A DNA stretch of 32,000 nucleotides from contig JACQNH010000044.1 of NCBI GenBank assembly GCA_016203175.1, positions 6,426-38,425 of the forward strand. Direction: 5' to 3'. Shown here in pieces: positions 3 through 25,918 of the stretch. The position numbers and the translations under genes were made by a program. Source of the DNA: Candidatus Woesearchaeota archaeon (lineage in GTDB: Archaea; Nanobdellota; Nanobdellia; SCGC-AAA011-G17; JACQNH01). The notes under the pieces are model-generated. The model searched no databases and had not been told where the DNA came from. It was given only the letters and a program-made list of their open reading frames with translations. Numbering within the stretch: position 1 is the stretch's first letter; the number at the start of each line of letters is the position of its first letter.

Positions 3-419
3 GCCTACCACGGGGCTGAATTAATAACACTTATAATATCTATTTTTATACCTGGTTTTACTGTAGCTTATTTTGGAATAGCTATAGCCCCATTTTTAGC
101 AGCAATATCTTTTTTCACAATAATGGATATAAAACAATTAAGCCCGGTAGTAAAATTTCCAACAGCTTTCGTAGCAGGATTAACAACACCATTGTTTTTA
201 ATTCAGCCAAATTTTGTTTGGATTTACCTTTTAATAAACCTTTACACAAGTTTGTTTGCAAGTAAAAAAAGTGAATTTATAGCCTTAACAGTTCCAGTAA
301 TTTATATCGCAATAATTATTTTAATTTTAACAAGAATAGACTTAGGCTACTGCAATCTTATACAACAATTAGCATCAACCCTATCCCCAACAACCCCATT
401 TAAATTGCCACAAATTTAA
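3..419 (+). CDS. hypothetical polytopic membrane protein, 5' end outside the window
   Basis: The reading frame is open from base 3 (AYHGAELITLIISIFIPGF...) into the tracked ORF 123..419. The protein is strongly hydrophobic and helical, with no recognisable motif. It overlaps the convergent gene by 20 nt at its 3' end. Confidence 0.4.
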   Translation, partial: AYHGAELITLIISIFIPGFTVAYFGIAIAPFLAAISFFTIMDIKQLSPVVKFPTAFVAGLTTPLFLIQPNFVWIYLLINLYTSLFASKKSEFIALTVPVIYIAIIILILTRIDLGYCNLIQQLASTLSPTTPFKLPQI

Positions 420-3111
420 GAAACTTCAAAAATCTTGGTTCTTTCAAAAGTAATTTAAATAAAAATTTAGATGGAAAATCCCTGTTATATTCTTTCATTA
501 ACTCTAAAACTCTTTCTTGATTAAATAAGCTTATTAAATAACTATAATCCTCTTCTTTAAAAAAACTCATCACTTGTCTTATCTTCAGACTTAACAATAA
601 TTCCTTTCCAATTAATCTTTTAATTTCTTTATCATAATTCCCACCATCTTTAATTATCTTACTTAAAACCTTAGCAGCATTCAATCCATACACGATTCCA
701 CCATGAGTATTATGAAGCAAAATATTACCCAATCCCCCAACAAAAGTATTTATATCATTTACTTCTAAATCAAAAACCTCATCGTACTTAGAATCAGCAA
801 TTTTAACATCTTTTATTGGTAATATTAAAACATTGTTTTTAATCAAATTAAAATATAATTTTTCTTTTTTATTTTTATTCTTAATTTTGCCTAATAATCT
901 AATCATTTTTTCATAAGAATAAGTCTTGAAACTACTATAAGAATGCCCAAAATATTTTCTAAAAAGTAACTTCCGATTCCTAAAAATATCACTAATTAAT
1001 TTTTTAGGAATACCCTTCATAGATTTTGAGTCATTTATAGATCTTATAAAACTAGTTAAAACATTTCTTTTCTCTGGAAAAAAATCTCTTAATTTATATA
1101 AATCCTTCTGATTAGATACTGAAAGAACGTAATTACAAGTTGTTTTAATATTTTTTCCATAAAGAACATGACCTTTATGAATAACTGTCCTAACATTAGG
1201 GGAAACACCTAGTTGAAATAAAAGTAAAACTAAGTCACTAACTAATTTTCTACTTGCAGTTTCTACCGTCAAATCAGCAGACCAATTCCTTCTTTTTTTT
1301 GACTTTCTAATCCTTAAATGCCCATCCCCCCTAAAATATGCTTTCAAAAACTCTTTTCTTAAGCTATCAGAAACATTAAATATTATATTAGGAACTTCCT
1401 TATTCTCCGAACCAAAATTACAACCCAATAGCCTAGAGAATAACAAGCCAACTATAAAACCACCAAAAACAACATTTACCTTGGAATCCTCTTTAGTAAA
1501 CTTATTTTTAACCATTGAAATACAGTATCTTATACCTAAACTCCTCTCTATACAATATTTTACATCTTCTAAATTACCATTCAAAATATCATCTTTTCCA
1601 AAATTTAAAATAATACCTGATTTTTTTAAACTACCCTCAGCCACATAATATCCCAACAACCTTGCAAAATACTTATTAATTTTAATTTTATTTGGTATAG
1701 CTAAAAATTTCTTAGCAGGATTCATTGTAATCTTAACATCTTCAGGTATAACCCCTTGATCTAAAAAAGCTTCAAGAGGAATCAAATCTCTCCTATAATA
1801 AGTTTTAGGTAAACCGTTTAGATAAAATCTCAAATCTCTTTTGTGCCTCAAATACTTCATACCTCTAAAAACTAAAATTCTTTTTGCTAAAGATTTATCA
1901 TAATCTAATAACAATTTTATAACATTTATTTCCTTTATAGAATTTAATTTTGGAACATTATTTCTGATTAATAAATAATCTTGCCCTGTAACTAGTTCTG
2001 AAGTCTTCTTTTCAATAATTTCATCATTAGATAAACACATAATACTATGGGCACTAGTAACTTTAACCCTAAAACCTTTTTCACAAATAACCTCATATAA
2101 ATTATCCTTAAGTCTATGTTTAATCACCCTATTTAATCTAACAAGTTTTAACTTACCCTTCTTATCTAAAGTAAAAACATCTACTCTTTTATCCAATTTT
2201 AAACTCTTTAGATCTATTTCTTTATCCTCTAAAATAATTTTTGATTTATTTTTGTTCATTAAATCATTAACAAATTCCCCAACCCTTATACTTTTCATCA
2301 TTCCATCTTCAAAAATCATAATAGACTCGCTGTAATCAACACTTGAAGCTTTCACTAACCCAGCAGCATCACCAGTTAAAAAAACTTTATTTTTAAAACT
2401 CAATGGGACATCATGATTAAATAAAGGAATCATTCCAGTTTGATTCTCTAATTTTTTAACCTTAAATAGTTTTAAAAATTTATTAAACTCTTTTCTCAAA
2501 TTACTATCTCCAACGACACCAATCCTTGCAAAATTTTTATTCTCAGGTACTAACCAGCCAAATTCACCATAACCTAAATAAACTTTATACACATCAGGTT
2601 CAAATTCTCCTTTTACCCTATATTGCATTGCAGTTTTATACTTTCTTCCATTTAACATATTAAAAGAATTTCCAACCCTAGAATAAGGACCATCAGCACC
2701 AACTAAAATTTCATCCTCAATTAAACCTTTATTAGTCAAGCATTGAATTTTTTTATTAACAATACTAGCAGCATTTAACCTATGATTTAACAAGACTTTA
2801 ACACCTTCATTTTCAGCCATCTCACATAAATATCTATCAAACTTACACCTATCTAAAATATAATCTCCTTTACCTAAATCAACATCTAAAATATCTCCAT
2901 TAAAATGTACACGAACAGTTTTGATCTTGTTTACAATCACACTTTCATCTAATTTTAATACATTATCAATAGCATCAGTAACAACACCAGTGCATTGAAC
3001 AGGTTTCCCAATACAAGAATGCTCTTCCAACAAATTAACCTTAAATCCTTCTTTAGCCAATAAATAACCTAAATAACTACCGCTTGGACCTGCACCAACA
3101 ATTGTTACCAT
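400..3111 (-). CDS. geranylgeranyl reductase family FAD-dependent oxidoreductase (likely digeranylgeranylglycerophospholipid reductase), intein-containing precursor
   Basis: The N-terminal Rossmann motif is IVGAGPSGSYLG. The motifs GKPVQCTG, ILDRCKFDRYL, LVGADGPYSRV and GDAAG follow in the order typical of GGR-family flavoproteins. The exteins total about 358 aa (256 + 102) and are interrupted by a 545-aa intein. Confidence 0.85.
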   Translation of the reverse strand: MVTIVGAGPSGSYLGYLLAKEGFKVNLLEEHSCIGKPVQCTGVVTDAIDNVLKLDESVIVNKIKTVRVHFNGDILDVDLGKGDYILDRCKFDRYLCEMAENEGVKVLLNHRLNAASIVNKKIQCLTNKGLIEDEILVGADGPYSRVGNSFNMLNGRKYKTAMQYRVKGEFEPDVYKVYLGYGEFGWLVPENKNFARIGVVGDSNLRKEFNKFLKLFKVKKLENQTGMIPLFNHDVPLSFKNKVFLTGDAAGLVKASSVDYSESIMIFEDGMMKSIRVGEFVNDLMNKNKSKIILEDKEIDLKSLKLDKRVDVFTLDKKGKLKLVRLNRVIKHRLKDNLYEVICEKGFRVKVTSAHSIMCLSNDEIIEKKTSELVTGQDYLLIRNNVPKLNSIKEINVIKLLLDYDKSLAKRILVFRGMKYLRHKRDLRFYLNGLPKTYYRRDLIPLEAFLDQGVIPEDVKITMNPAKKFLAIPNKIKINKYFARLLGYYVAEGSLKKSGIILNFGKDDILNGNLEDVKYCIERSLGIRYCISMVKNKFTKEDSKVNVVFGGFIVGLLFSRLLGCNFGSENKEVPNIIFNVSDSLRKEFLKAYFRGDGHLRIRKSKKRRNWSADLTVETASRKLVSDLVLLLFQLGVSPNVRTVIHKGHVLYGKNIKTTCNYVLSVSNQKDLYKLRDFFPEKRNVLTSFIRSINDSKSMKGIPKKLISDIFRNRKLLFRKYFGHSYSSFKTYSYEKMIRLLGKIKNKNKKEKLYFNLIKNNVLILPIKDVKIADSKYDEVFDLEVNDINTFVGGLGNILLHNTHGGIVYGLNAAKVLSKIIKDGGNYDKEIKRLIGKELLLSLKIRQVMSFFKEEDYSYLISLFNQERVLELMKEYNRDFPSKFLFKLLLKEPRFLKFLKFVAI
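709..2343 (-). mobile_element. LAGLIDADG-type intein within the geranylgeranyl reductase (aa 257-801)
   Basis: Block A is SVDYSESIMIFEDG (Ser1) and block B is VKVTSAHSIM (TxxH). The two LAGLIDADG motifs are LLGYYVAEGS and FLKAYFRGDGH. Blocks F/G are EVFDLEVNDINTFVGGLGNILLHN, followed by Thr+1. Codon positions were checked by hand: AGT at 2343..2341 and AAT at 711..709. Excision joins GDAAGLVKAS to THGGIVYG. Confidence 0.8.
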
Positions 3112-3161
3112 AAAAAAACATCTTTAAAAAAATTTATAAAGCTAATGCACTAAAAGTCCTT

Positions 3162-4019
3162 ATGCTAGAAATTTTATTATCAATTTATGCAATATTAGCC
3201 CTATTATTAGCAACTATAACAGATTTTAAAAATAGAGAGATTCTAGACTCTATAAGCTTCACTTTACTAGCAATCTCCTCAATAACAGTAATTATTTATT
3301 CTATAATTTTAAAAGATTTCAATATAACCTTAACCACATTAAAAGTATTTTTTCCCTTGCTGTTTTTATCACTAATTTTATATTTTACAAGGCAATGGGG
3401 GGGAGGGGATACAAAATTATTAATCGCATTATCGATACCACTAGCATTTCCACTAATAAAATTTGATTTAACTTTATCATCCCCAATAGATTTCATTACA
3501 AATCTAGCAGTAGTAGGTGCATTATATGGAACCTTTTTTGCAATAATAAAAACAATAAGACATCCAAAAGAATTTATTAAAAATGCAAAAGAATTAACAA
3601 AAGGAAAAAAACCTACAATTTTAATTTCAATACTTATTTCACTATTGCTTTTTATACTAGGGTATTTATTAAAATCACAGTTTACCACAGCATTACTATA
3701 CGCATCAGCAATTTTTATTTTAATAACCCCAATGTTATTCATAATCTTTAAATCCGTAGAGAAATTTTCAATGATTAAAACTATTCCAGTAAATAAACTA
3801 ACACCAGGGGATTGGATTATAGACAAAAATATAAAATCAAAATTTAAAATCTCAGAACTAGGGATAGAACCAGAACAGATTTTAAAATTAAAAAAATCTA
3901 AAACTAAATCAATTTTAATAAAAGAAGGCTTACCATTTGCCCCAATATTTTTATTAGCCTACTTAATAACAATCTTCAATGGTAATCTAGTCTTAAATAT
4001 TTTAAAATTAATTTTTTAA
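3162..4019 (+). CDS. A24-family prepilin/preflagellin peptidase (PibD/FlaK/EppA-like)
   Basis: This is a polytopic membrane protein with the two aspartyl-protease signatures at the expected spacing. They are TITDFKNREI (Asp21) and WGGGDTKLL (GxGD, Asp83). It has an extra C-terminal soluble or membrane extension. Confidence 0.8.
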   Translation: MLEILLSIYAILALLLATITDFKNREILDSISFTLLAISSITVIIYSIILKDFNITLTTLKVFFPLLFLSLILYFTRQWGGGDTKLLIALSIPLAFPLIKFDLTLSSPIDFITNLAVVGALYGTFFAIIKTIRHPKEFIKNAKELTKGKKPTILISILISLLLFILGYLLKSQFTTALLYASAIFILITPMLFIIFKSVEKFSMIKTIPVNKLTPGDWIIDKNIKSKFKISELGIEPEQILKLKKSKTKSILIKEGLPFAPIFLLAYLITIFNGNLVLNILKLIF

Positions 4020-4645
4020 GGAATTCTTTCTTTAAACTTAAATTCCTCTAATTCTTTAATAACTTTAACAGGTTTAACCTCTAATTTCTTAACAACTTTC
4101 AACTTTTCTTTAATTAGTTTGGATAATTCTTGCAAATCCTTTTCTTTAACATTTAATTTCTCCCAATTAATTTTTACTTTATCATCCTCACTTCTAGGAA
4201 TTACATGAACATAACCATGAGCTACTTTCTGACCTGCAGTTACACCATCCCCAATCAAAATGTTTACCCCTTCAACCTTTAAAACATCAAAAACAACCTT
4301 CGCAACCCTTTGAACAACATCCATAATTTTTCCGTAATCTTTAGAATTAGTTATAGAACTTTCATGGTTCAAAGGAATAACTAACATGTGGCCTTTGCTG
4401 GCAGGATTAATATCAAATATAACCATTACATTTTCATCTTGATATAAAATCTCACTTTTTAATTTTCCTTCTTTAATCAAACAAAAAGGACATTCACTCC
4501 CACCATATTGTTTTCTTAAATATTCAACTTGTTCAGGGCTGCATTTTTTAAGAAATTCATTAAATTTTTTACTTTGCTCATCTCCTTTTAACTGAGAAAT
4601 CTCCTGCAATTCCTTTAACTGTTCCTTAGAAAACAAATCTGCCAT
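4016..4645 (-). CDS. HIT (histidine triad) family protein with a variant triad and N- and C-terminal extensions
   Basis: The core CPFCLIKEGKL...VMVIFDINPASKGHMLVIPLNH...GQKVAHGYVHVIPR matches the HIT fold pattern. The triad reads H-G-Y-V-H instead of H-x-H-x-H. Confidence 0.75.
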   Translation of the reverse strand: MADLFSKEQLKELQEISQLKGDEQSKKFNEFLKKCSPEQVEYLRKQYGGSECPFCLIKEGKLKSEILYQDENVMVIFDINPASKGHMLVIPLNHESSITNSKDYGKIMDVVQRVAKVVFDVLKVEGVNILIGDGVTAGQKVAHGYVHVIPRSEDDKVKINWEKLNVKEKDLQELSKLIKEKLKVVKKLEVKPVKVIKELEEFKFKERIP

Positions 4646-4675
4646 AAATATTTTAAAGTTTAATCTTATTTAAAT

Positions 4676-4951
4676 TTAACCTACAGCCCTTCTAACATCC
4701 ACAACTTCACAACTTTGAACACCTTCTATAGTACAAATATCTTTTTCCAATTTTTCAGTATCCCCTTTACTCTCGTCTAAAGTAAACATCAACTTCAAAG
4801 CAACTAAACCAAAAGCAACTGGCTCTTTCTCTTCTTTATGAACATTCCCCCCAAAAGTTTTAATCTTCTCAATTGCCTTTACTTTAATATTGTCTAAATT
4901 AACATCTACACCGTCAGGCATTATTCTAAAAGTTATTATTACAGTTGCCAT
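4676..4951 (-). CDS. ef1b: translation elongation factor aEF-1 beta
   Basis: The 91-aa protein reads IMPDGVDVNLDNIK...EPVAFGLVALKLMF...IEGVQSCEVVDVRR. It is colinear with archaeal EF-1beta sequences of about 89 aa. Confidence 0.85.
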   Translation of the reverse strand: MATVIITFRIMPDGVDVNLDNIKVKAIEKIKTFGGNVHKEEKEPVAFGLVALKLMFTLDESKGDTEKLEKDICTIEGVQSCEVVDVRRAVG

Positions 4952-4958
4952 TTAAACC

Positions 4959-5126
4959 TCAATTAGGACCTGTAAAACCACAATCACAAGTATACTTAGC
5001 GCATATTTCTCTACAACTTTTACATCTTATAATCTTGTTTTTATCACAAGCAGGACAAGTGAAGATAACAGACCCAGGATCATTGGTTATTTCCTTCTTA
5101 CAAGACATACATAATTGCTTTGTCAT
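4959..5126 (-). CDS. small Zn-ribbon protein (COG2888-like, conserved upstream partner of aEF-1beta); not in the ORF track
   Basis: Hand translation of the minus strand gives MTKQLCMSCKKEITNDPGSVIFTCPACDKNKIIRCKSCREICAKYTCDCGFTGPN* (55 aa). It contains four CxxC-type pairs. The stop lies 7 nt before the ef1b ATG. The tracked plus-strand ORF 4945..5166 is its mirror image. Confidence 0.65.
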   Translation of the reverse strand: MTKQLCMSCKKEITNDPGSVIFTCPACDKNKIIRCKSCREICAKYTCDCGFTGPN

Positions 5127-5161
5127 TTTAACAAGCCAGTTTTCAACACTTTATAAAACTT

Positions 5162-5183
5162 TTTAAAGCAGTATAAATATATA
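5162..5183 (+). promoter_or_regulatory. TATA-like boxes upstream of tRNA-Arg
   Basis: The sequence is ttttaaagcagtataaatatat, lying 9-30 nt upstream of the mature tRNA 5' end. Spacing is compatible with an archaeal TATA box at about -26. The AT-rich background makes this weak evidence. Confidence 0.3.
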
Positions 5184-5191
5184 AAATAAAT

Positions 5192-5265
5192 GCTCCTGTA
5201 GTATAGCCTGGATAGTATACAAGCTTGCGGAGCTTGGGACCGAGGTTCAAATCCTCGCAGGAGCG
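5192..5265 (+). tRNA. tRNA-Arg (anticodon GCG)
   Basis: I folded the cloverleaf by hand. The acceptor stem is GCUCCUG/CAGGAGC. The D stem is GUAU/GUAU with G10-U25 and U13-G22 wobbles and a GG in the loop. The anticodon stem is CAAGC/GCUUG with loop UU-GCG-GA. The T arm is CGAGG-UUCAAAU-CCUCG, and the discriminator is G. CCA is not encoded. Length is 74 nt. Confidence 0.85.
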
Positions 5266-5280
5266 AATCTAAATCCAATA

Positions 5281-7905
5281 TTAAATATCTGCATCCTTAA
5301 TCCCTTGCTCAGTTATCATAAAAGGAGCTTCTGACTCAGGCAAATAAGGACTATCCACCATTTTTGCTACCCTAGTTCCTTTCTTTCCCTTTCTTAGATA
5401 TACCCGTGTAGTCATTCCATGCGCAAGTACGTGCCCCCCAATAGCCTCAGTTGGATCTCCAAAAAATGTGTCTGGTTTAGACATTACTTGATTAGTAACA
5501 TAAACAACAATATTGTAGCTTGTTGCTAATTTCAATAAAGTATGTATATGTTTGTTTAATTTCTGTTGCCTATCCGCTAATTGTCCACGACCAACAAAAT
5601 CCGACCTATAGTGGCTCATTAAAGAATCAATAATTACTAATTTTATACACTTATCTTTTTGGCGAAGAAAATCCTCTGCTTTTTCCGCTAACAACATTTG
5701 ATGGTCGCTATTAAAAGCCCGAGCAACAATAATATTCTTCAAAGTTATAATCGGGTCTAAACCAACATCTGTAGCAATTTGTTTTATTCTTTCAGGTCTA
5801 AAAGTATTATGTAAAATTATACCCCCATGCCCCCCAATAAAGTTCTGTATCTCTTTATCTCCAGGCATTACTTCCACATCATAAGTCATCTCCTCTCCGA
5901 CACAATTTATTGATTCTATAGCATCAAACCAAATATCAGAATTAATTATCTTCTTTATTTTAAGAATTGATTCAGAATCTGGTAAATACTGTAACCATCT
6001 AGTTAAAGTAGATTTCCTAATAGGGTAATATCGCTTCAACCTGTATGTCAAATAACTATTATCTATCCCTGCTTTTATAGAAAAACTTTTAATACTGCCA
6101 TAATTATCCATTATAGACTTTAATAAGGGTATTGTAAATTGCAATTTATCATTAGGTAATTCATCAAACCTACTATCCCCTATTAAAAATGTTTGCCAAC
6201 TAATACTTTGCATAGCGTATTTCTTTCCATCATTCTCAGGCCTTATACCGTTTTTTTCAGAACACTTATAGGTTCTAATAACTGTATTATGTCTCGCAGG
6301 AATACCTAAAGCACAAGTAGCATATAATAAACCGTCTGCAAGCTCTTTACTTTTAGTTTCACATGTAGTGGCCCCAGTAATTTTATCTCTAGAACCATCT
6401 CCAGCAATATAGCCTTCCATAAACGCTTCGATATACTTCTCACCCAAGTTTAAAATAAACTCAGGCAACTTTTTTGTATCAGCTGAATACCCTAAATTCA
6501 ATTTCTCAATAAACAAAGCAAAAGGTCGAGCATTAATCTTCAAATCATTCTTACTTCGTTTTACTACAAAACTTAGACTACTAGCAAAATTTCTTACATA
6601 ATTATACTCTACATCTTTCTTTGTACAAGTTATAATTACACTACGCCCCTTTAAACAACTACCTTCCCCAACATATAAACCTAAAAATTTCATCAAATCA
6701 ATTGTAGTAGGCACTAATAAAGGCATCATATATTTCCTAGACCAACCCCCGATTCTAAGTTTAGTTTTAATTGCATCATTCATTTTAAACTTTATTTTAT
6801 TATAAACACCAAGTGGCAATTCAGTTCTTGTTAACCAATTATTTAAACTACTTGTGGAAAGATTTTTTGATACTGCCATCGATTGCAAATCTTCTCTTAT
6901 TGTATCTAAAAAGCTTCTAAATTCTTCACCCCCACGCACATACAAACCATTAACATCACTAAACATTTCTGATAAATCGAATACATTAATGCCCATCTTA
7001 ATTGGAATACTACCAGCTATTGCTATTTTCGTTCCTTTACTTAAATCCTTTGTTGCAATTTCGCTCAACTCACAATTACCATCTAAAGTAAAAAAATTGT
7101 GATATTCAGTTACCCTAACAGATCTCCCACTCTTCAATTTTACTTCATAAATTTTCTGTTTTGGATGTTTTATGAACCCTGTTATGGGAAAAGTCTTGAT
7201 TTTATAATCTTCCGGATCATAAGAAATTGCCTTTACATTTTCAAAATTATCTGCTGTAGAAATAGTATTGCCATACCTAACAATATTCTCAGTACTATTC
7301 AAAGCAGTTTCTATAAGTTCTCCTATCTGCACTAATTGAATTCTATTCTCCTTTTCAACCAGTATCTTCTCGCCAAAAGGTAAACTGCTTTCAGTATCAA
7401 TCCACAAAGCTTTTCCATCAATACCTCCTTTTTCTTTAGGTAATTGAACATTCACAGCTAATTGATGAGCTATCGCACTTTTTCCAGCACCATATGGACC
7501 ATAGCATTCTGTTATCCCAGAACTCTCAACACCCCCCCCGAAAAGTTGATCCAATTTTTTACTCCCTAAAGATATTCTCAATAAATTATCTCTTTTCTTT
7601 AACAATTCTTCACCAGTTTCAAAACCCATACCTGCTTTTTCCCTGGCAGTATTAATCATCTTTCTTGCAACACTTTCACCAACACCACAAGCCTCAACCA
7701 ATTGACCAGGGCTAGCAACAGCAACAGAAATTAAATCACAAAATCCTCCTTCTCTTAATTTTTCAGCAGTAGCAGCCCCAACACCAGGTAAATCATTAAT
7801 TGTAAATTCTTTCTTTTTATCAGCTTTAGATTTTTGAATATCTTTTTCATCAACTACAGCCTCTTTTTCTTTCCCAAGTGTTTCTTTTTCTAGGTCTTTA
7901 TTCAT
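5281..7905 (-). CDS. radA: DNA repair and recombination protein RadA, intein-containing precursor
   Basis: The N-terminal HhH motif is LPGVGAATAEKLREGGF. Walker A is GPYGAGKS. The core reads LWIDTES-[intein]-TFRPERI, then Walker B LVIIDSL, then VVYVTNQV...GGHVLAHG. The exteins total 347 aa. Confidence 0.9.
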   Translation of the reverse strand: MNKDLEKETLGKEKEAVVDEKDIQKSKADKKKEFTINDLPGVGAATAEKLREGGFCDLISVAVASPGQLVEACGVGESVARKMINTAREKAGMGFETGEELLKKRDNLLRISLGSKKLDQLFGGGVESSGITECYGPYGAGKSAIAHQLAVNVQLPKEKGGIDGKALWIDTESSLPFGEKILVEKENRIQLVQIGELIETALNSTENIVRYGNTISTADNFENVKAISYDPEDYKIKTFPITGFIKHPKQKIYEVKLKSGRSVRVTEYHNFFTLDGNCELSEIATKDLSKGTKIAIAGSIPIKMGINVFDLSEMFSDVNGLYVRGGEEFRSFLDTIREDLQSMAVSKNLSTSSLNNWLTRTELPLGVYNKIKFKMNDAIKTKLRIGGWSRKYMMPLLVPTTIDLMKFLGLYVGEGSCLKGRSVIITCTKKDVEYNYVRNFASSLSFVVKRSKNDLKINARPFALFIEKLNLGYSADTKKLPEFILNLGEKYIEAFMEGYIAGDGSRDKITGATTCETKSKELADGLLYATCALGIPARHNTVIRTYKCSEKNGIRPENDGKKYAMQSISWQTFLIGDSRFDELPNDKLQFTIPLLKSIMDNYGSIKSFSIKAGIDNSYLTYRLKRYYPIRKSTLTRWLQYLPDSESILKIKKIINSDIWFDAIESINCVGEEMTYDVEVMPGDKEIQNFIGGHGGIILHNTFRPERIKQIATDVGLDPIITLKNIIVARAFNSDHQMLLAEKAEDFLRQKDKCIKLVIIDSLMSHYRSDFVGRGQLADRQQKLNKHIHTLLKLATSYNIVVYVTNQVMSKPDTFFGDPTEAIGGHVLAHGMTTRVYLRKGKKGTRVAKMVDSPYLPESEAPFMITEQGIKDADI
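5806..7386 (-). mobile_element. LAGLIDADG-type intein within RadA (aa 174-700)
   Basis: Block A is SLPFGEKILVEKEN (Ser1) and block B is VRVTEYHNFF (TxxH). The LAGLIDADG motifs are FLGLYVGEGS and FMEGYIAGDGS. The C-terminal blocks are MTYDVEVMP...QNFIGGHGGIILHN, followed by Thr+1. Boundary codons were checked: AGT 7386..7384 and AAT 5808..5806. Excision gives IDTES-TFRPERI, matching the Rad51/RadA pattern IDTExTFRPER. Confidence 0.85.
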
Positions 7906-9676: not shown

Positions 9677-10405
9677 TTACCTCTTCACAACATATTTTAT
9701 CTCAAAAGTTTCAACATCTCCACGATAAAATAATTTCTTACCCGCATCAACCATAACAATAACATAATCCATTTTATCATCAAAAGAAACATTTAATCTA
9801 CTTAAGTCAAAAGGGGAATTATTCAAGCATTTATTCAAATTTGTCTTTTCAACCTTAACACAATCCCTAATTAAACCAAATAACCTAAAACTATCTTCAA
9901 AAAAATTAAAATCTTTAAGCTCAATACTAAATTCAGGCTCTATTTTAAACCAAATATCCTTATCTTCATCAAAAATTTCAACACTTTTACCTTTTCCAGT
10001 AATTTTATCAGTTATTTGAACCTCTTTTTCTTCAAATTCTTTATAATTTAAATTTTTAAAATCTATAATTAAGTCATTTAAATTTTTTAAGAATTCTTTT
10101 TTTAATTCACCTTTAAAATCAGGCTTAGAACTCGTTTTAGTTCCTATAGGCTCACTTAATTTACTCCAACCACCATTTTTCCCTAATCTCAATAAACTTC
10201 TCTTATAAGCCTCTAAAGCAAAATAATTCAAATTAAAATTTATTTCATCTCCAATTTGATATAATTTCAATAACCTAACCTCATCGCTCCCATAATAATT
10301 CTTTCCTAAAGTACCTTTGCTAGTAACTTGATACTCTATTAACAAAAATATAGCTACTATAAACCCAATACTTGCTATAATCATTAAAAACCCTTTCTTA
10401 TTCAT
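9677..10405 (-). CDS. prepilin-like protein (class III signal peptide)
   Basis: The N-terminus is MNKKG/FLMIIASIGFIVAIFLLI. It is the last gene of the pilin operon. Its ATG overlaps the upstream stop by 8 nt. Confidence 0.6.
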   Translation of the reverse strand: MNKKGFLMIIASIGFIVAIFLLIEYQVTSKGTLGKNYYGSDEVRLLKLYQIGDEINFNLNYFALEAYKRSLLRLGKNGGWSKLSEPIGTKTSSKPDFKGELKKEFLKNLNDLIIDFKNLNYKEFEEKEVQITDKITGKGKSVEIFDEDKDIWFKIEPEFSIELKDFNFFEDSFRLFGLIRDCVKVEKTNLNKCLNNSPFDLSRLNVSFDDKMDYVIVMVDAGKKLFYRGDVETFEIKYVVKR

Positions 10406-11126
10406 AAAATCTCCTCCCTATAATACAAGAATGTAAATCCACAGTTATATCCCCATCATAATTCTTACTTTTCAAGCTAGAATGTCCATAAGAACGATAA
10501 AAATACTTATTTCCTGAAAAACCAGAAGATTCTAAGCACCATTCAGCTTCAGAAACATCATCAACAGAAAAAAGATCCTTATTTCTAGATTCAATAATAT
10601 TTATAGTTGGTTCACGTAATACTTCAGGTGGGCTTCTAGAAAAACCTTTATTTATAATCCTAATAAAATAAAAAGTACCAAGCTTTTCAAATCTAAAAAT
10701 TAAAGTATAATCAGGAGTAAATTCAAAATTAATAGATGCTTCAGATGTATACTGATGTGGATAAATTACTCTAAAATAGTTTACAATCTTTACTAAAATT
10801 TCTTTACTTTCTTTTAACTTATCAGAATAAACAGCAGCAATATAAAAGAAGTCCACAACTGTACTATCCTCATCTAAACCAATTTTCACTAGCTTAGACA
10901 AATCTTCTTTTCCTAAAATAGAACCTAAATTAGTATTCAAAAAAGAAATTAAATCATTCTTAATGTCAATAGAAGCAGCATCCTCAAGACCTTGATTAGC
11001 TTGTATTGTAAATCCATTTATTGTAGAGATTAACAAAACAACTCCAACTATAGAAAGTAAAAAAGCTAGTAACAAATCTCCGAATATATCCTCTGTTTGT
11101 CCTTTTTTATTTAGTTTAATCCCCAT
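10398..11126 (-). CDS. prepilin-like protein (class III signal peptide)
   Basis: The N-terminus is MGIKLNKKG/QTEDIFGDLLLAFLLSIVGVVLLI. It overlaps both neighbouring genes. Confidence 0.6.
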   Translation of the reverse strand: MGIKLNKKGQTEDIFGDLLLAFLLSIVGVVLLISTINGFTIQANQGLEDAASIDIKNDLISFLNTNLGSILGKEDLSKLVKIGLDEDSTVVDFFYIAAVYSDKLKESKEILVKIVNYFRVIYPHQYTSEASINFEFTPDYTLIFRFEKLGTFYFIRIINKGFSRSPPEVLREPTINIIESRNKDLFSVDDVSEAEWCLESSGFSGNKYFYRSYGHSSLKSKNYDGDITVDLHSCIIGRRFYE

Positions 11127-11568
11127 ATTCTAACCCCATAACTAAAGTTTTTAATTCCCCATTATTATCTACTAAAACTAAAGCTTTATCGTCTCTTCTT
11201 TTATAACCGCCAATACCATTAGTTATTTCACTTTTAAACAGCTTACCGCCATCAAACAAATTAATCTTAATAGATTTCTTAAAATTACTAGTGCATTTTC
11301 TTAAATTTTCAGAAGTAAATTTATTTAAATCAATTACAGGAATTTTATAAAGATCAGAAGCAAAACAATTAGAACTATGAGTTAAAACATATTTAATTGC
11401 ACTCCCCTCTATAAAATCTTTAGTTTTAAAAGTTTCAGCCTTCATATTTACCAATAAACCATAAAAAGTAACAAAAACAAAAGTTAAAAAAACAGAAGCC
11501 ATAAATATGTACAAAGCCTTCCTTCCTAAATCATAATCACCTTTTTTATTCAAGATCAGTTTTCTCAT
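11116..11568 (-). CDS. prepilin-like protein (class III signal peptide)
   Basis: The N-terminus is MRKLILNKKG/DYDLGRKALYIFMASVFLTFVFVTF. It overlaps the upstream gene by 23 nt. Confidence 0.6.
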   Translation of the reverse strand: MRKLILNKKGDYDLGRKALYIFMASVFLTFVFVTFYGLLVNMKAETFKTKDFIEGSAIKYVLTHSSNCFASDLYKIPVIDLNKFTSENLRKCTSNFKKSIKINLFDGGKLFKSEITNGIGGYKRRDDKALVLVDNNGELKTLVMGLEYGD

Positions 11569-11902
11569 AAATTATAAACCTTCCACCTTTTTTTTCAATA
11601 ATCAATTTCTTTGATCCTAAATTATTAATAATCTTAGTATTTGTTCTTTCTAAATCCACATCATCTCCAGTTATTTTAACGCCATTTCCAACAATATAAG
11701 CTATACTTGCATCCCCATCTGCATTTTTAATTAAAGTCTTGCCCAAATTCAACTGCTCAGATACAGATAAAGCATATCCTTTACTTTCAGCACCAAAAAC
11801 CTGATTTAAAGCAAAAACCATAACTAAAAAAAATAAAAATCCTCCTATAACCTGAAATAGATTCATAGTCTCCAAAACTACAGCATCACCTTTTTTATTC
11901 AT
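11546..11902 (-). CDS. prepilin-like protein (class III signal peptide)
   Basis: The N-terminus is MNKKG/DAVVLETMNLFQVIGGFLFFLVMVFAL. A GAGG SD lies 8 nt upstream of the ATG. Confidence 0.65.
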   Translation of the reverse strand: MNKKGDAVVLETMNLFQVIGGFLFFLVMVFALNQVFGAESKGYALSVSEQLNLGKTLIKNADGDASIAYIVGNGVKITGDDVDLERTNTKIINNLGSKKLIIEKKGGRFIIYEKTDLE

Positions 11903-11929
11903 ATTTTTGCCTCATTTTATTTTGCTAAT

Positions 11930-11964
11930 TTTTCTTTTCCAAGGTTTTCTTTTCTAAAGAAAAG
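11930..11964. repeat. intergenic element copy B: TTTTCTTTT-CCAAGG-TTTTCTTTT-ct-AAAGAAAA
   Basis: The architecture matches copy A, with direct 9-mers at 11930..11938 and 11945..11953 and an inverted 8-mer at 11956..11963. An 8-bp hairpin is retained despite two single-base indels relative to copy A. Confidence 0.7.
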
Positions 11965-11982
11965 TTAGTTTAAATAAATTTC

Positions 11983-13371
11983 TCATTTAGTTGCAGTTAT
12001 ATCGACTTGCGAAATTGGAAAAGTCTTATCATATAAACAAACCTTTCCAGGATTTTTAGGGTCAGATCTAAATTCTAAATCAGTTTTAACCAGATTTTCA
12101 AAAGAATCCTGGTCTTCATAAATATTATCTCCTACAAGATTAGCTATAGCATCAATTTTCAAATCACCACTTCTAAAACTAAAACTAGGAGCACCATCTG
12201 AAGAAGGATCTTTTACCAAAGGATAAACACCTATAAAATCAGGATTAAATACATCTTTTGGAGTCAATAATAAATATTTAAATTCCCTTTCTTTCTCTCT
12301 ACCATTAAATTTACCTAAAAAAGTCTTCTTTTCATTAAAACACAAAGATATAGAATCAATATGCCCCAAATTAATAAATTTAGTATAACTAGTTTTAGTA
12401 CCTTCTGGAAAGATAAGTCGAAAAACTTCTGCTAAAAATTCAAAACCTTCAACTCGCCCCCTTGCAACCTTATTCTTGAATACAGAAATTGCAAGATTAA
12501 AATCCATCCCTTTTTCAGATATTAAAAAAACAGGAGAAAAAATATTCATAACAGCTATTTGATCTGTACTTTTAAAAAACCAATAAGAGCCAACTTTACT
12601 CCCCTGTAAATATAACCTTAATAACAAACTTTTAAAATAATCACTTTGAAGACCAGTAATAGATTCTTTAATATTCTCTTCCAAAATATTTAGTGTCTCA
12701 AAATCAAGCACCCTAAAACCATCGCCTAAAAATACTTCAACAGAATTTAATGAATCATAAAATTTAATTTTTACAGGAACCAAATTAATTGTCTTCTCTA
12801 CATCAAGCTCTAAACTAAATTCAGTACCCCCTTTCCCACCCTTTCCAAAAAAAGCCCCACCTAAACCCAAGGGGCAGTCTATATGATTTATCTCATTTGT
12901 AATCTTAACTAAACCACAATGGGATAATAAATTTTGATCAAAAGGAACACATTTGGCTCTTTTACAAGAAAACTGATCCAAATCTTCAATAAAATCTTCA
13001 CCAAACCCAGGATCTTTTATTTCAGTATTCACAATATTCCCACATTCACAAATACAACTTTTACCTTCACATTCAACATTTTGAGGCTTTGATATTAAAA
13101 AAGAACTAGTTAAAAGATCCCTAAAAAATTTAAACGCATATTTATCATCTTTCCCATAAACAACAACAGGCTTATTAAAATCACAATCAAAACTAATCTC
13201 TTTTCCAGGATTCTTTATAGCCTCTTGAACATTACTAACCAACAAACCAAAACAATCACGCTCAAAACCTAAAAAAAGTTTTATACCATATATTGCTATA
13301 GTACCCATAATTAAAAATAAAATTAATCCAACAACGAAACTTAAACTTTCAGCTTGTCCTCTTTTAAACAT
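11983..13371 (-). CDS. large prepilin-like protein with a Cys-rich ectodomain (candidate minor pilin or tip adhesin)
   Basis: The N-terminus is MFKRG/QAESLSFVVGLILFLIMGTIAIYGI. A Cys-rich segment follows (DCFG, FDCDF, ECEGKSCICECGN, FSCKRAKCVP, SHCG, IDCPLG), then about 290 aa without Cys. Confidence 0.6.
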   Translation of the reverse strand: MFKRGQAESLSFVVGLILFLIMGTIAIYGIKLFLGFERDCFGLLVSNVQEAIKNPGKEISFDCDFNKPVVVYGKDDKYAFKFFRDLLTSSFLISKPQNVECEGKSCICECGNIVNTEIKDPGFGEDFIEDLDQFSCKRAKCVPFDQNLLSHCGLVKITNEINHIDCPLGLGGAFFGKGGKGGTEFSLELDVEKTINLVPVKIKFYDSLNSVEVFLGDGFRVLDFETLNILEENIKESITGLQSDYFKSLLLRLYLQGSKVGSYWFFKSTDQIAVMNIFSPVFLISEKGMDFNLAISVFKNKVARGRVEGFEFLAEVFRLIFPEGTKTSYTKFINLGHIDSISLCFNEKKTFLGKFNGREKEREFKYLLLTPKDVFNPDFIGVYPLVKDPSSDGAPSFSFRSGDLKIDAIANLVGDNIYEDQDSFENLVKTDLEFRSDPKNPGKVCLYDKTFPISQVDITATK

Positions 13372-14005: not shown

Positions 14006-14782
14006 ATGAATAAAATCAACCTAGAAAAGCCAAATATCGAATTTTTAATAAATAAAGGCTTTAAATGTTTAGATCTTCATATGCATTCAAATTTCTCAGA
14101 TGGCTCTTCAACACCAGAAGAAATTGCCAAAATAGCAGAAAAAAAGAATCTAATAATCTCCATAACTGACCATAATGAAATAGAGGGTGTTAAAAAAGCA
14201 ATAGAAATTAACAAAAACATAATAATCCCAGGAATAGAATTAACATCAAGAAATTCCAAAGACATACTAGTTTATTTTTACAACTTTAAAGACCTGGAAG
14301 ACTTTTACAATAAACACATTAAAAATAATAAAATTCATCCAGGAAAAGGTTTTGATCTAAAATGTTTAAAACTTTCAATGAAATCTATTTTAAATTATCT
14401 TAAAAATTATAAATGTATAAAAGTTATTCCTCATCCATTCGCATTAAAACCAAAAACAAATTATAGGTATTTCAAAAAAAGACCCCAGTTATTAAGAAAA
14501 ATGGATGCAATAGAAGTTTTACAATGCATTCAAACAAGAAAAAAAACAATAAAGTCAATTGGATGGGCAGAATCTATAAATAAACCAATGCTCGGTGGTT
14601 CAGACTCGCATACGCCAGAAACAATAGGCTCAGTTATAACAGCAGTGAAAGCAAAAGATATAAAAGAAATCTTAGATCAGATTAAAAAAGGAAAAACATT
14701 TATTTATGGTTTAGAACTCCCTTTATATCAAAAAATGAAAATAATGTTAAGATTGTTATTCAGAAACCTAAAATTAAAATGA
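14006..14782 (+). CDS. PHP-domain metal-dependent phosphoesterase
   Basis: The motifs LDLHMHSNFSDGS, ISITDHNEIEG, VIPHPF and GGSDSHTPETIG are the PHP family His/Asp motifs, in order. The tracked start at 13994 is a TTG, so I prefer the ATG at 14006 (MNKINLEK). Confidence 0.8.
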   Translation: MNKINLEKPNIEFLINKGFKCLDLHMHSNFSDGSSTPEEIAKIAEKKNLIISITDHNEIEGVKKAIEINKNIIIPGIELTSRNSKDILVYFYNFKDLEDFYNKHIKNNKIHPGKGFDLKCLKLSMKSILNYLKNYKCIKVIPHPFALKPKTNYRYFKKRPQLLRKMDAIEVLQCIQTRKKTIKSIGWAESINKPMLGGSDSHTPETIGSVITAVKAKDIKEILDQIKKGKTFIYGLELPLYQKMKIMLRLLFRNLKLK

Positions 14783-15327
14783 TAAACTTAATAATAAAAG
14801 CAATTTATTTCTTTCTTCCAGCCTATTTCGCAAACATGGCTCCACCAATTATTTTTAATATTCCATTTATCAAAAAAATTAATTACCCCATGGATTTTAA
14901 AAGAAATTTATTCAAAAAAAGGATCTTTGGTGATCATAAGACCATTTTAGGCTCTTTATCTGGTATTTTAGCATCAATTTTAATCTTCTTAATTCAAAAA
15001 TATTTATTTAATTTCAATTTCTTTCAAAACATTTCTTTAATAAACTACAATGAATTCAATCTACTATTTCCACTTTTATTAGGTTTTGGAGCAATTTCAG
15101 GGGATTTAATTAAAAGTTTCATAAAAAGAAGATTAAACATAAAACCAGGTGCATCTTTTCCAGTATTTGACCAGTTAGACTTTGTAATTGGAGCATTAAT
15201 ATTTTTATATTTTATCTACTTACCTTCAATAAGTATAATTTTGACTTTAATAATTTTAACACCTATATTATGTATTTTAATAAATTTTATAGCATTTAAA
15301 TTAAAATTAAAAAAAGTCTGGTATTAA
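14779..15327 (+). CDS. carS: CDP-archaeol synthase (CDP-2,3-bis-O-geranylgeranyl-sn-glycerol synthase, DUF46 family)
   Basis: The motifs are FLPAYFANMAPPI, RIFGDHKTILGSLSG, GDLIKSFIKRRLNIKPG and PVFDQLDFVIGA. It is a membrane protein of about 180 aa. There is an ATGA overlap with the PHP gene. Confidence 0.8.
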   Translation: MINLIIKAIYFFLPAYFANMAPPIIFNIPFIKKINYPMDFKRNLFKKRIFGDHKTILGSLSGILASILIFLIQKYLFNFNFFQNISLINYNEFNLLFPLLLGFGAISGDLIKSFIKRRLNIKPGASFPVFDQLDFVIGALIFLYFIYLPSISIILTLIILTPILCILINFIAFKLKLKKVWY

Positions 15328-16107
15328 TCACCTCTTTCTATATTGATAAGGATAAGCCCCAGTTTTTAATTTTGTAATTTCAAACTTATTTGTATCCCGA
15401 ATAAAATCATCAAGTAAACCATTAGTGTCCTTATCAAAAATAAAACCAAGATTACTAACTGCAACATTGTTATAATTAAAGAAAGTATAAGCTAAGATTG
15501 GAGCATAGAGTTTTTGACTTAAAACATAATCTGGTAAAATTCTCGCATTCAATCCTTGACGATCATAATAAATTTGCAAATCATTTTCATAAAAATTAAT
15601 AAAATCGCTAACAATAAAACCCCCTTTAGAACCAACAAAGTAACCAAATTCAACTCCAATATCATTTTTAAAAGATTTTTTCTGTATAAACTTATTTTGT
15701 AACTTATCAAATAATAAAAAAACTAAAACCTTTTTATCTTTAGAATTTTGAACATGAATTTCATAATCTTCTTTTAATAGTACTAATTTTCTTAAACCCA
15801 TAATTTTCATCTTGTCAGGTTCTTTAATTACACTTTCAAAAGCACTTACAACCTCATCAAAAGCCTTTTTAGCATTTGCAGCAGGATCACCATAAACTCT
15901 TTCAATACCGCTTCCTTTCAAACCAAAAACCTCTTTAAATTGACTAACAATATCGCTTGTTGTACCTTTTAATTCACCTCTAAACTTTGTAGCAGTTTCA
16001 CCTGTAGAAAAAGATAAATAACCAATCCCAACAATAAAAATTAATACTAAAGCTATTCCACCATAAACCAATTCCTCATGCTCAACAGCCCCTTTTTTTG
16101 TAAACAT
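15328..16107 (-). CDS. prepilin-like protein (class III signal peptide)
   Basis: Starting at the ATG at 16107, the N-terminus is MFTKKG/AVEHEELVYGGIALVLIFIVGIGYL. The tracked start at 16119 is a TTG and would overlap the preceding mini-ORF. Confidence 0.6.
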   Translation of the reverse strand: MFTKKGAVEHEELVYGGIALVLIFIVGIGYLSFSTGETATKFRGELKGTTSDIVSQFKEVFGLKGSGIERVYGDPAANAKKAFDEVVSAFESVIKEPDKMKIMGLRKLVLLKEDYEIHVQNSKDKKVLVFLLFDKLQNKFIQKKSFKNDIGVEFGYFVGSKGGFIVSDFINFYENDLQIYYDRQGLNARILPDYVLSQKLYAPILAYTFFNYNNVAVSNLGFIFDKDTNGLLDDFIRDTNKFEITKLKTGAYPYQYRKR

Positions 16108-16109
16108 TT

Positions 16110-16268
16110 TCAACCCCAAAAAGTTCCTTTAAATACTTCTTTAAAATAATTTATTACTCCTTCCCTAATTTCATTTGATATTAAAAAATATATAATAACA
16201 ATAATTAATATTATAACTAATGCAACAATATAATCCCAGTGTATCGCTCCTCTTTTAAATTTAAGCAC
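16110..16268 (-). CDS. mini prepilin-like protein (52 aa, GTG start); not in the ORF track
   Basis: Hand translation gives (GTG)M-LKFKRG/AIHWDYIVALVIILIIVIIYFLISNEIREGVINYFKEVFKGTFWG*. The GTG overlaps the upstream stop (GTGCTTAA). The stop TGA at 16112..16110 lies 2 nt before the next ATG. No ATG is available in this frame. Confidence 0.5.
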   Translation of the reverse strand: MLKFKRGAIHWDYIVALVIILIIVIIYFLISNEIREGVINYFKEVFKGTFWG

Positions 16269-17007
16269 TTTTAACCCCTCCAAAAGCTAATAAATTTCTC
16301 TGTGATATATAATCCTTTCCCCCGTCATAAGCATAATCATCTGTAAATATTAATCTATCAGGATCATCCATTTCAAAACCATCATAAAATCTTATATAAT
16401 ATCTACAACTAATTTTTTTACATTCTTCAGCATCCTTATCAAAAATAGATTTGCCTAAAAATCTGTTATCAATCCTTAGTTTATTCCCCCATAACCCAGT
16501 TCTTTCCACATACTCAACAAAACTTTCTTCTGTATAACTATCATCATTAAAAAGTTTGTTTAGAGGTATATTTAATGCATTCAAAAATTCTGTTACACTT
16601 ATCTCATCACTTTTGTCTAAATCAATATTAAAATTAAAACAAGTATTATAACTATTAACAGCAAAAAACCACTCCTTCAATAATTTTGGATGAGGAGTAT
16701 TTCCAAGCATTTCCCAACATCTCCCCATTAATTTAACAATATCCTTAATAACTTCATCTTTATCCCCCTTTGCTATTTGATCTTTACTTCCACAAGCCAA
16801 AGGCATTGTCGCAGGAAGAAATTTACCAAAAAAAGAAACCAAATTACCATTAATCCTCCCACTAATAGCACAAGCCAATTCCCCCCCATAAAGACTAAAT
16901 TGCTTCTGACCTAAATAAACAATAGAACCAGCCACTACTGCAAAAATAATTACTAATACTATACCCAACATAACATTTGGACCCCCATCTCCTTTTTTAA
17001 GCAACAT
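16261..17007 (-). CDS. prepilin-like protein (class III signal peptide)
   Basis: The N-terminus is MLLKKG/DGGPNVMLGIVLVIIFAVVAGSIVYL. It is the first pilin-like gene downstream of the platform gene. Confidence 0.6.
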   Translation of the reverse strand: MLLKKGDGGPNVMLGIVLVIIFAVVAGSIVYLGQKQFSLYGGELACAISGRINGNLVSFFGKFLPATMPLACGSKDQIAKGDKDEVIKDIVKLMGRCWEMLGNTPHPKLLKEWFFAVNSYNTCFNFNIDLDKSDEISVTEFLNALNIPLNKLFNDDSYTEESFVEYVERTGLWGNKLRIDNRFLGKSIFDKDAEECKKISCRYYIRFYDGFEMDDPDRLIFTDDYAYDGGKDYISQRNLLAFGGVKSA

Positions 17008-17092
17008 AACTTCTTAACCCCCATATAACAAGTAACATTATCACTACTAACAATAAACTCAAGATCAATATCACAATATATCCAGTTTCCAT
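16997..17092 (-). CDS. possible 31-aa single-pass membrane micro-ORF
   Basis: The sequence is METGYIVILILSLLLVVIMLLVIWGLRSYVA*. It fills the gap between the platform gene (stop at 17095) and the next pilin gene and overlaps that gene's ATG. It has no KKG motif. It is called only from position and hydrophobicity. Confidence 0.3.
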   Translation of the reverse strand: METGYIVILILSLLLVVIMLLVIWGLRSYVA

Positions 17093-17094
17093 TT

Positions 17095-25402: not shown

Positions 25403-25918
25403 ATGCTAGAAAGTAAATTAAAAAATATGAAAGACGAATTCAATGAAGGCATATTATTACTAAAAAACGAAAGAAACCAAGAGGCTCTAAAATACTTTAA
25501 TTCAAAATTAGCAACTGATGATCCTTTGGTTTATTATGGAATTGCAACAGCAAAATTTAAAATAAAACAACATACTTTAACTATAGAAGAGCTATATGAA
25601 ATTATTGTTTTGTATAAAAAAGCACTAGAAAAGGACCAAAAATTTGCAGACGCTTATTTAATGTGTGGGTTAACCTATGGACAATTGGCTTCTACATTAA
25701 CAATAGCGTATAAAAGAGACCCACTTAATAAAGGTGATTCTCAAATAAATAATATTAAAAATATTCTACAACAATCAAAATGGTTTATAGAAAAAGCTAT
25801 AGAAATTAATCCTGATTTCGCCAAAAATTGCGAGCATATCCTCAATAAATTCGAAAGAAGATTTGAAGGTATTGATTCTTTAAAGAAGTTTTATGAAAAT
25901 AGATCTCAATTTAACTAA
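25403..25918 (+). CDS. TPR-like helical repeat protein
   Basis: The 171-aa protein is all-helical in character. It has TPR-like segments (EALKYFNSKLATDDPLVYYGIATA; YKKALEKDQKFADAYLMCGLTYGQL; IEKAIEINPDFAKN). It begins directly after the phosphoesterase stop. Confidence 0.5.
   Translation: MLESKLKNMKDEFNEGILLLKNERNQEALKYFNSKLATDDPLVYYGIATAKFKIKQHTLTIEELYEIIVLYKKALEKDQKFADAYLMCGLTYGQLASTLTIAYKRDPLNKGDSQINNIKNILQQSKWFIEKAIEINPDFAKNCEHILNKFERRFEGIDSLKKFYENRSQFN

Follow-up and report, generated by a model that had tools for sequence, protein, structure and literature searches.

A probable class-1 homing intein in a geranylgeranyl reductase-family flavoprotein gene of Woesearchaeota

Introduction

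Does an overlong flavoprotein gene of a woesearchaeote encode an enlarged reductase with a domain of its own, or a reductase of ordinary size that is interrupted by an intein? The question is raised by a 32-kb stretch of contig JACQNH010000044.1 (positions 6,426 to 38,425 of the forward strand; Candidatus Woesearchaeota archaeon, assembly GCA_016203175.1), the whole of which is termed the window here. An open reading frame (ORF) at window positions 400..3111 on the minus strand (stop codon 400-402) encodes a protein of 903 amino acids (aa) and 103.7 kDa, whose sequence is that of NCBI protein P0121, annotated only as 'NAD(P)-binding protein [Candidatus Woesearchaeota archaeon]'. A first-pass annotation had proposed that this ORF consists of a flavoprotein of the geranylgeranyl reductase (GGR) family and an intein, that such a host is unusual and that archaeal membrane-lipid maturation would depend on protein splicing. 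Our analysis assigns a probability of about 0.9 to the reading that window positions 709-2343 (minus strand) constitute a canonical class-1 intein with a LAGLIDADG homing endonuclease, located in frame in the gene for a GGR-family flavoprotein that uses flavin adenine dinucleotide (FAD).

The first-pass statement on a concentration of inteins in proteins of replication and repair agrees with published counts, in which COG category L accounts for 66.9% of intein hosts in archaea and category F for 8.3%, all others being rare; inteins typically occupy conserved active-site motifs (Novikova et al., PMC4760082). Because hosts fall mostly into category L, a flavin reductase is statistically an unusual host.

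Results

Codon mapping located the 545-aa insert and its 358-aa host exactly as annotated in the first pass and yielded three consecutive parts, all encoded on the minus strand. The N-extein (2344..3111, aa 1-256) belongs to the GGR-family flavoprotein and ends with ...LVKAS, its terminal stretch reading ...FLTGDAAGLVKAS, while the C-extein (403..708, aa 802-903, 102 aa) starts with THGGIVYG, the codon for Thr+1 being located at 706-708. The intein between them (709..2343, aa 257-801, 545 aa, 63.2 kDa) runs from SVDYSES... to ...GNILLHN and comprises a Hint splicing domain that is split by a LAGLIDADG homing-endonuclease domain; its last codon, specifying Asn545, is found at 711-709. Joining the exteins (256 + 102 aa) gives a protein of 358 aa with a computed mass of 40.5 kDa and a predicted ligated tryptic junction peptide ASTHGGIVYGLNAAK. 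Recent foreign acquisition of the intein was considered as well; base composition is silent in this respect, with a GC content of 26% for the intein vs. 26-30% for the exteins.

Among 5.8 billion proteins, the joined exteins matched 615, and the best 120 of these all have the size of an intein-free protein (344-388 aa). The closest homologue among these 120, P0001, is intein-free and 91% identical. It is encoded on a groundwater scaffold from ENA (locus L001), where the neighboring genes match those of the window (Peptidase_A24, HIT, EF1_GNE, aS21, RadA and an RPA-like gene). BLASTN aligned the two loci on both sides of the insert, i.e., window 23-705 with L001 11451-10769 (91.2% identity) and window 2342-5410 with L001 10767-7691 (90.7% identity). 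Between these flanks, L001 lacks window positions 706-2341, a gap that matches the 1,635-bp intein exactly. At the empty site, the sequence is GGGCTGGTGAAAGCTTCA/AGCCATGGAGGC (a slash marks insertion or splice points throughout), part of the empty-site stretch ...GCTGCTGGGCTGGTGAAAGCTTCAAGCCATGGAGGCATTGTCTATGGA..., from which GGGCTGGTGAAAGCTTCA/AGCCATGGAGGCATTGTC can be proposed as a candidate endonuclease substrate. This syntenic empty allele is the strongest single evidence for a discrete mobile element over a native domain.

The same comparison bears on the proposal that the insert is a native reductase domain or, as is conceivable for any sequence stemming from a metagenome assembly, that the ORF is an assembly chimera of a GGR gene and an intein from another gene. 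Insert boundaries and the gap in orthologues lacking an intein agree at codon resolution: all ten aligned intein-free homologues are continuous across the junction, where they read ...GDAAG.VKA[ST]-[ST]HGG..., with one clean gap facing the insert, and none of them aligns through it. The identical 903-aa protein is found in more than one public source (ncbi, lgn and nr), albeit from one 45.5 kb contig only, and other assemblies contain 14 additional GGR-family sequences with the same in-frame junctions. Native domain and chimera are thereby effectively refuted.

The insert itself scored above the curated cut-offs of intein-splicing as well as LAGLIDADG models. On the whole ORF, Pfam Intein_splicing (PF14890) matched aa 266-801 (E=8.4e-18, 65.1 bits, cut-off 35.8) and LAGLIDADG_3 (PF14528) was detected with E=2.8e-10 and 40.8 bits (cut-off 22.5). 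The insert alone reached 32.7 bits with NCBIfam model intein_Nterm (TIGR01445, cut-off 24.5) and also matched the intein portions of the NCBIfam models for intein-bearing PolII, RNA polymerase A'', DnaB, GyrA and the tetraether lipid synthase Tes. The class-1 residues are completely present (Ser1, TxxH, block F Asp, block G His-Asn and Thr+1), and the motifs quoted in the first-pass annotation were all recovered. Block A (SVDYSESIMIFEDG) contains the nucleophile Ser1 (codon 2341..2343) and block B (TSAHS) the TxxH motif T-S-A-H (2047..2058; intein T96 and H99). The first LAGLIDADG motif, LLGYYVAEGS (1630..1659), carries the catalytic Glu E236 and the second, FLKAYFRGDGH (1318..1350), the catalytic Asp D340. 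Blocks F and G, VFDLEV...GGLGNILLHN (709..777), provide D525, H544 and the terminal N545, so that ILLHN directly precedes Thr+1 of THGGIVYG.

In a sequence search of the PDB, the best match was the 537-aa intein endonuclease PI-PkoII (2CW7, E=5.4e-19), followed by the TFIIB mini-intein; blocks A and B, both LAGLIDADG motifs and blocks F and G of the insert all aligned with 2CW7. An AlphaFold model of the full precursor had a mean predicted local distance difference test (pLDDT) score of 87.8; values fell below 50 solely at the two predicted splice junctions (254-257 and 801-804) and in a loop at 293-301. When this predicted model served as query for Foldseek against the PDB, the inteins 2CW7 (E=1e-25), TliVMA (7QSS, 1e-20) and PI-PfuI (1DQ3, 7e-17) were retrieved, the intein matches 2CW7, 7QSS, 7QSU, 1DQ3 and 7QST spanning E=1e-25 to 1e-14. 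Interleaved with them were GGRs, namely 3OZ2 (E=2e-18, root-mean-square deviation 3.0) and then 4OPL and 3ATQ, which ranked ahead of other flavoproteins. The intein is a real, mobile and probably active element, for which splicing as well as endonuclease activity are predicted from sequence and model.

The first-pass annotation had further suggested that excision joins GDAAGLVKAS to THGGIVYG and thereby restores the family motif. This is borne out by the joined exteins, which score 172.8 bits with TIGR02032 (GG-red-SF, 'geranylgeranyl reductase family protein'; cut-off 158.8) and align with the GGR from Thermoplasma acidophilum (3OZ2; phmmer E=4.1e-18) without gap through the junction (gdaaglvkas·thggi / GDAARLIDPI·TGGGI). 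The GGR motifs defined in the literature, i.e., GxGxxG, the catalytic Cys, RxxFD and LxGD (PMC10821996), are found in the host as GAGPSG (aa 6-11), Cys40 within PVQC, RCKFD (88-92) and LTGD (245-248, in LTGDAAG 245-251), with C40, R88, D92, G247 and D248 invariant among the aligned homologues. At the position of the PxxYxWxFP cavity motif, the host reads GEFGWLVP (FGWLVP, 184-189) and retains Trp, Pro and one aromatic residue, not the full motif, which is poorly conserved across arCOG00570 (PMC10821996).

More specific models were not satisfied. The host reached 56.7, 56.0 and 22.2 bits with the equivalog models for digeranylgeranylglycerophospholipid (DGGGPL) reductases NF041160, NF041080 and NF041385, as compared with cut-offs of 780, 580 and 700, and is filed here as a member of the GGR family only, not as the lipid reductase itself. 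By its profile matches, family membership alone is established for the host. GGR paralogues are numerous in archaea and mostly uncharacterized (PMC10821996). In addition, Woesearchaeota have been reported to lack geranylgeranylglyceryl phosphate (GGGP) and digeranylgeranylglyceryl phosphate (DGGGP) synthases (PMC8421398) and probably obtain lipids from partners (PMC8421398, PMC6470261). Since the host passes a family-level model only and belongs to a lineage reported without these two synthases, the earlier statement that splicing is required for membrane-lipid maturation is an extrapolation, albeit a plausible one. A gene for a CarS-like CDP-archaeol synthase (PF01864, 133 bits) is located in the window at 14779-15327 on the plus strand, 12 kb from the GGR gene, indicating that late steps in the handling of archaeal phospholipids are encoded in a lineage said to be devoid of GGGP and DGGGP synthases. 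This gene is the sole hint from context that the host may reduce DGGGP or archaeol-type substrates.

The same GGR site is occupied in at least 15 distinct GGR-family proteins, i.e., that of the window and 14 others (P0122-P0124, P0143, P0145, P0146 and those from GTDB genomes L002-L010, L003 being identical to P0122), with carriers among Woesearchaeota/Nanoarchaeia, Iainarchaeum and Micrarchaeota. An intein search retrieved three other FAD oxidoreductases (873-899 aa) with inteins 37-38% identical to that of the window, and inteins of topoisomerase VI subunit A ranked next (27-31% identity). In an exhaustive search of cluster representatives (50% identity level), about 7 of the top 150 clusters matched extein as well as intein. 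Among GTDB species, each represented by one genome, a scan revealed the nine carriers L002-L010: four Iainarchaeum, two Micrarchaeota, one Nanoarchaeia, one 'uncultured archaeon' and one metagenome-assembled genome labelled Methanosarcinales. Junctions are alike in every occupied allele (GD[AS][AG]xxxKAT/S[IV]D...LHN/TGGG), and Thr+1 is present wherever the C-terminal junction is complete. In almost all pairs, the inteins resemble each other more closely (33-61% identity) than the exteins do (23-51%), as exemplified by L002 and L003 with 48% for the inteins vs. 31% for the exteins. That inteins are more alike than their hosts fits spread by homing.

The 14 GGR inteins compared show no variation at S1, T96, H99, E236, D340, D525, H544 or N545. 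Conservation in the interior is highest in the LAGLIDADG core, where 33 of 185 columns are invariant, and every complete GGR intein has a length of 532-545 aa and includes the endonuclease domain, mini-inteins being absent from the 14 copies. We infer that distribution and conservation are as expected if the intein actively homes into a conserved target.

The intact residues also speak to the idea of a decaying, splicing-dead intein, in which case the gene would be a pseudogene or its flavoprotein permanently broken at the FAD loop, and the organism would use another GGR or host lipids. DPANN genomes are reductive and reported to be host-dependent for lipids (PMC6470261, PMC8421398), and a view of 32 kb of the genome leaves room for a second GGR elsewhere. 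However, the ORF is unbroken over 2.7 kb, all catalytic residues for splicing and endonuclease activity are kept and invariant in the homologues, the exteins, with an intein-free orthologue at 91% identity, retain the GGR motifs GxGxxG, catalytic Cys, RxxFD and LxGD, and the structure model is confident for all three domains. We consider a dead intein very unlikely.

The GGR intein closest to that of the window (40% identity) is located on contig CAZUSQ010000002.1 (371-3106; L002). This contig has been binned as 'uncultured Methanosarcinales archaeon', although its extein is of the DPANN (Woesearchaeota/Nanoarchaeia) type and 42% identical to that of the window, such that it may represent a mis-binned contig or a transfer. 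Distant members of the same intein group with 24-28% identity and S[IV]D... / ...HN termini were observed in other host genes (L011, L012, L020, L021, L025), with junctions reading ...GGS[LF]/.../SEG[VI]D, ...MFVYE[ML]/.../TQxxVARGGQ and ...GSLPDG/.../SRVN.

The window contains three intein-bearing genes, i.e., those for the GGR-family protein, RadA and a FlaI/T2SSE-like ATPase. RadA (874 aa, 5281-7905, minus strand) is interrupted by a LAGLIDADG intein with a length of about 526 aa (about 5806-7383; WIDTES/SLPFGEK...GIILHN/TFRPE). In RadA of L001 (5288-7819) this site is empty (IDTEGTLRPE) and an intein is present at a different, downstream site following GGHVVGHA; the difference in RadA sites between 91%-identical relatives indicates ongoing gain, loss or relocation of inteins in the lineage. 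The FlaI/T2SSE-like secretion or pilus ATPase (1461 aa, 19228-23613, minus strand) contains a 705-aa LAGLIDADG intein (about 20107-22221) inside the Walker A P-loop (GTRSSGK/CVGGDTLI...GIIAHN/TSLLGS). A derivation of the GGR intein by copying from one of these two was rejected, given about 23% identity with the RadA intein and a marginal match with the ATPase intein.

A further ORF of 2008 aa (25915-31941, minus strand) features PEGA repeats, CarboxypepD_reg and a dockerin-type domain; its product is probably a giant adhesion or surface protein, a type known from episymbiotic DPANN archaea. ORFs of 242, 242, 150, 462, 263, 248 and 706 aa (window 9677-13371 and 15328-19215) had no Pfam match, the first four of them falling into a stretch that is 91% conserved in L001. 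Rfam and tRNA scans of the window yielded solely a tRNA-Arg (5191-5266) that is unrelated to the intein.

Discussion

The insertion point lies between Ser256 and Thr802, eight residues past the Asp of LxGD, and corresponds to the loop DPI/TGGGI in the T. acidophilum GGR. We take it to be the GDAAH-xxx-P-x-T-G-x-G loop of flavoproteins with the p-hydroxybenzoate hydroxylase fold, which precedes the helix pointing at the flavin. The LxGD motif has been tied to FAD interaction (PMC10821996), and with an insertion next to it the precursor should be inactive before splicing.

From the conserved residues and the established class-1 pathway, the following sequence of events can be proposed. The 103.7-kDa precursor would be unable to form the flavin site. 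Ser1 would undergo an N-to-O acyl shift, and Thr+1 would attack the resulting ester to give a branched intermediate. Cyclization of Asn545 with the help of His544 would release the 63-kDa intein, and an O-to-N shift would remake the peptide bond in a 40.5-kDa enzyme reading ...GDAAGLVKAS-THGGIVYG.... As judged from the comparative data, free intein or precursor would cut alleles without the intein where they encode the conserved K-A-[ST]/T-[GH]-G-G, and recombinational repair would copy the intein into the cut allele. Such a homing cycle would account for the spread of the intein among divergent GGR genes of DPANN archaea.

Whether the element has been domesticated has to be considered in this context. 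Splicing could be tuned by temperature, redox or another cue and switch on isoprenoid saturation post-translationally; in a lipid-scavenging DPANN archaeon, the reductase would then be active, and acquired or recycled isoprenoid lipids would be saturated, only when splicing is permitted. Inteins in conserved motifs have been suggested to splice conditionally (PMC4760082), activities of precursor and product would differ here with an insertion that breaks the flavin site, and the site is occupied in several DPANN phyla, a persistence that a conditional switch, if true, would explain. On the other hand, the closest relative (91% identity) is intein-free and so are most family members, as is evident from the small fraction of representative clusters that carry the intein. 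Conservation is strongest in the endonuclease, suggesting selection for mobility, and all 14 copies have kept the full endonuclease domain. Furthermore, the nucleophiles are Ser and Thr and not the Cys pairs of known redox traps. We regard a regulatory role as likewise very unlikely, and the intein is best seen as a selfish passenger that is tolerated because it splices, not as a regulator.

Several observations weigh against the interpretation as an active homing intein in a GGR gene. Splicing and endonuclease activity are deduced from sequence and structure model, every dataset used consists of metagenome assemblies, and the host misses the DGGGPL-reductase cut-offs by far. The stronger conservation of inteins than of exteins could reflect strong constraint instead of horizontal transfer. 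Finally, the empty allele of L001 and the joined exteins differ at 8 of 48 bases around the site (window 685-732 and 2320-2367, i.e., ±24 nt of the splice junctions, vs. L001 about 10745-10792), and this allele is a putative cleavage substrate. These differences are mostly synonymous, six of them being located on the 3' side of the insertion point; as an indication of a co-conversion tract or a homing-resistant target they are not significant when compared with the gene-wide difference of 9.3% (binomial p=0.07).

Among inteins in other hosts, those in topoisomerase VI subunit A of Micrarchaeota (P0125-P0133; L013-L019) are the closest relatives (27-31% identical over their full length). Their termini, S[VI]D..EP... 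and ...LLHN/T, are shared with the GGR inteins, and they stem from the same DPANN gene pool, but they reside in a DNA enzyme at the site ...VF/TDCDAWGWY and form a separate and more distant group than the GGR inteins with their mutual identity of 33-61%. PI-PkoII, the Pol-2 intein of Thermococcus kodakarensis and the best PDB match in sequence and structure, has the same arrangement of Hint-N, LAGLIDADG endonuclease and Hint-C in about 540 aa, with the aligned motifs LLGYYVSEG and FLEGYFIGDG, yet interrupts DNA polymerase B at another insertion site and is only about 21% identical. Regarding the host, the enzymes from T. acidophilum (Ta0516, 3OZ2) and Sulfolobus acidocaldarius (3ATQ/4OPL) agree with it in fold and in GxGxxG, catalytic Cys, RxxFD, aromatic-W-x-x-P and LxGD, but are intein-free and comprise 397-452 aa vs. 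358 aa.

A precedent in an archaeal membrane-lipid enzyme is offered by Tes with an intein (NCBIfam NF045703, an 'exception' model), the intein region of which matches that of the window (E=9.2e-21), whereas the host is a radical-SAM protein and not a flavoprotein and the insertion site is unrelated. Metabolic enzymes of Methanocaldococcus jannaschii, for example glutamine-fructose-6-phosphate transaminase, phosphoenolpyruvate synthase and UDP-glucose dehydrogenase, provide further cases outside replication and repair, with inteins in conserved cofactor- or substrate-binding motifs of different host families. To our knowledge, none of these is located in an FAD-dependent GGR-family protein.

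We found no description of a GGR intein in the literature, the full host list of Novikova et al. being outside the comparison, so that absence is not proven. The terms 'intein' and 'geranylgeranyl reductase' occur together in one paper only, on a cyanobacterial genome, which mentions each of them once, and the term 'inteins' is absent from a review on GGRs (PMC10821996). The earlier notion of an unusual host holds as far as the rare host category is concerned (PMC4760082). The intein is not unique to this genome, with at least 15 proteins affected, and Tes provides a precedent.

Overall, the locus apparently adds a new insertion site and a new host family, FAD-dependent isoprenoid reductases, to a well-known kind of element, without a new mechanism, and leaves the understanding of how inteins work unchanged. 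It provides material for further work in the form of an occupied and an empty allele at 91% identity for homing and a 14-member family of Ser1/Thr+1 inteins for splicing studies. In surveys of DPANN lipid pathways, the 903-aa protein would be misjudged unless the intein is removed first. If the element behaves as proposed, the intein pool of DPANN archaea is active and reaches beyond enzymes acting on nucleic acids.

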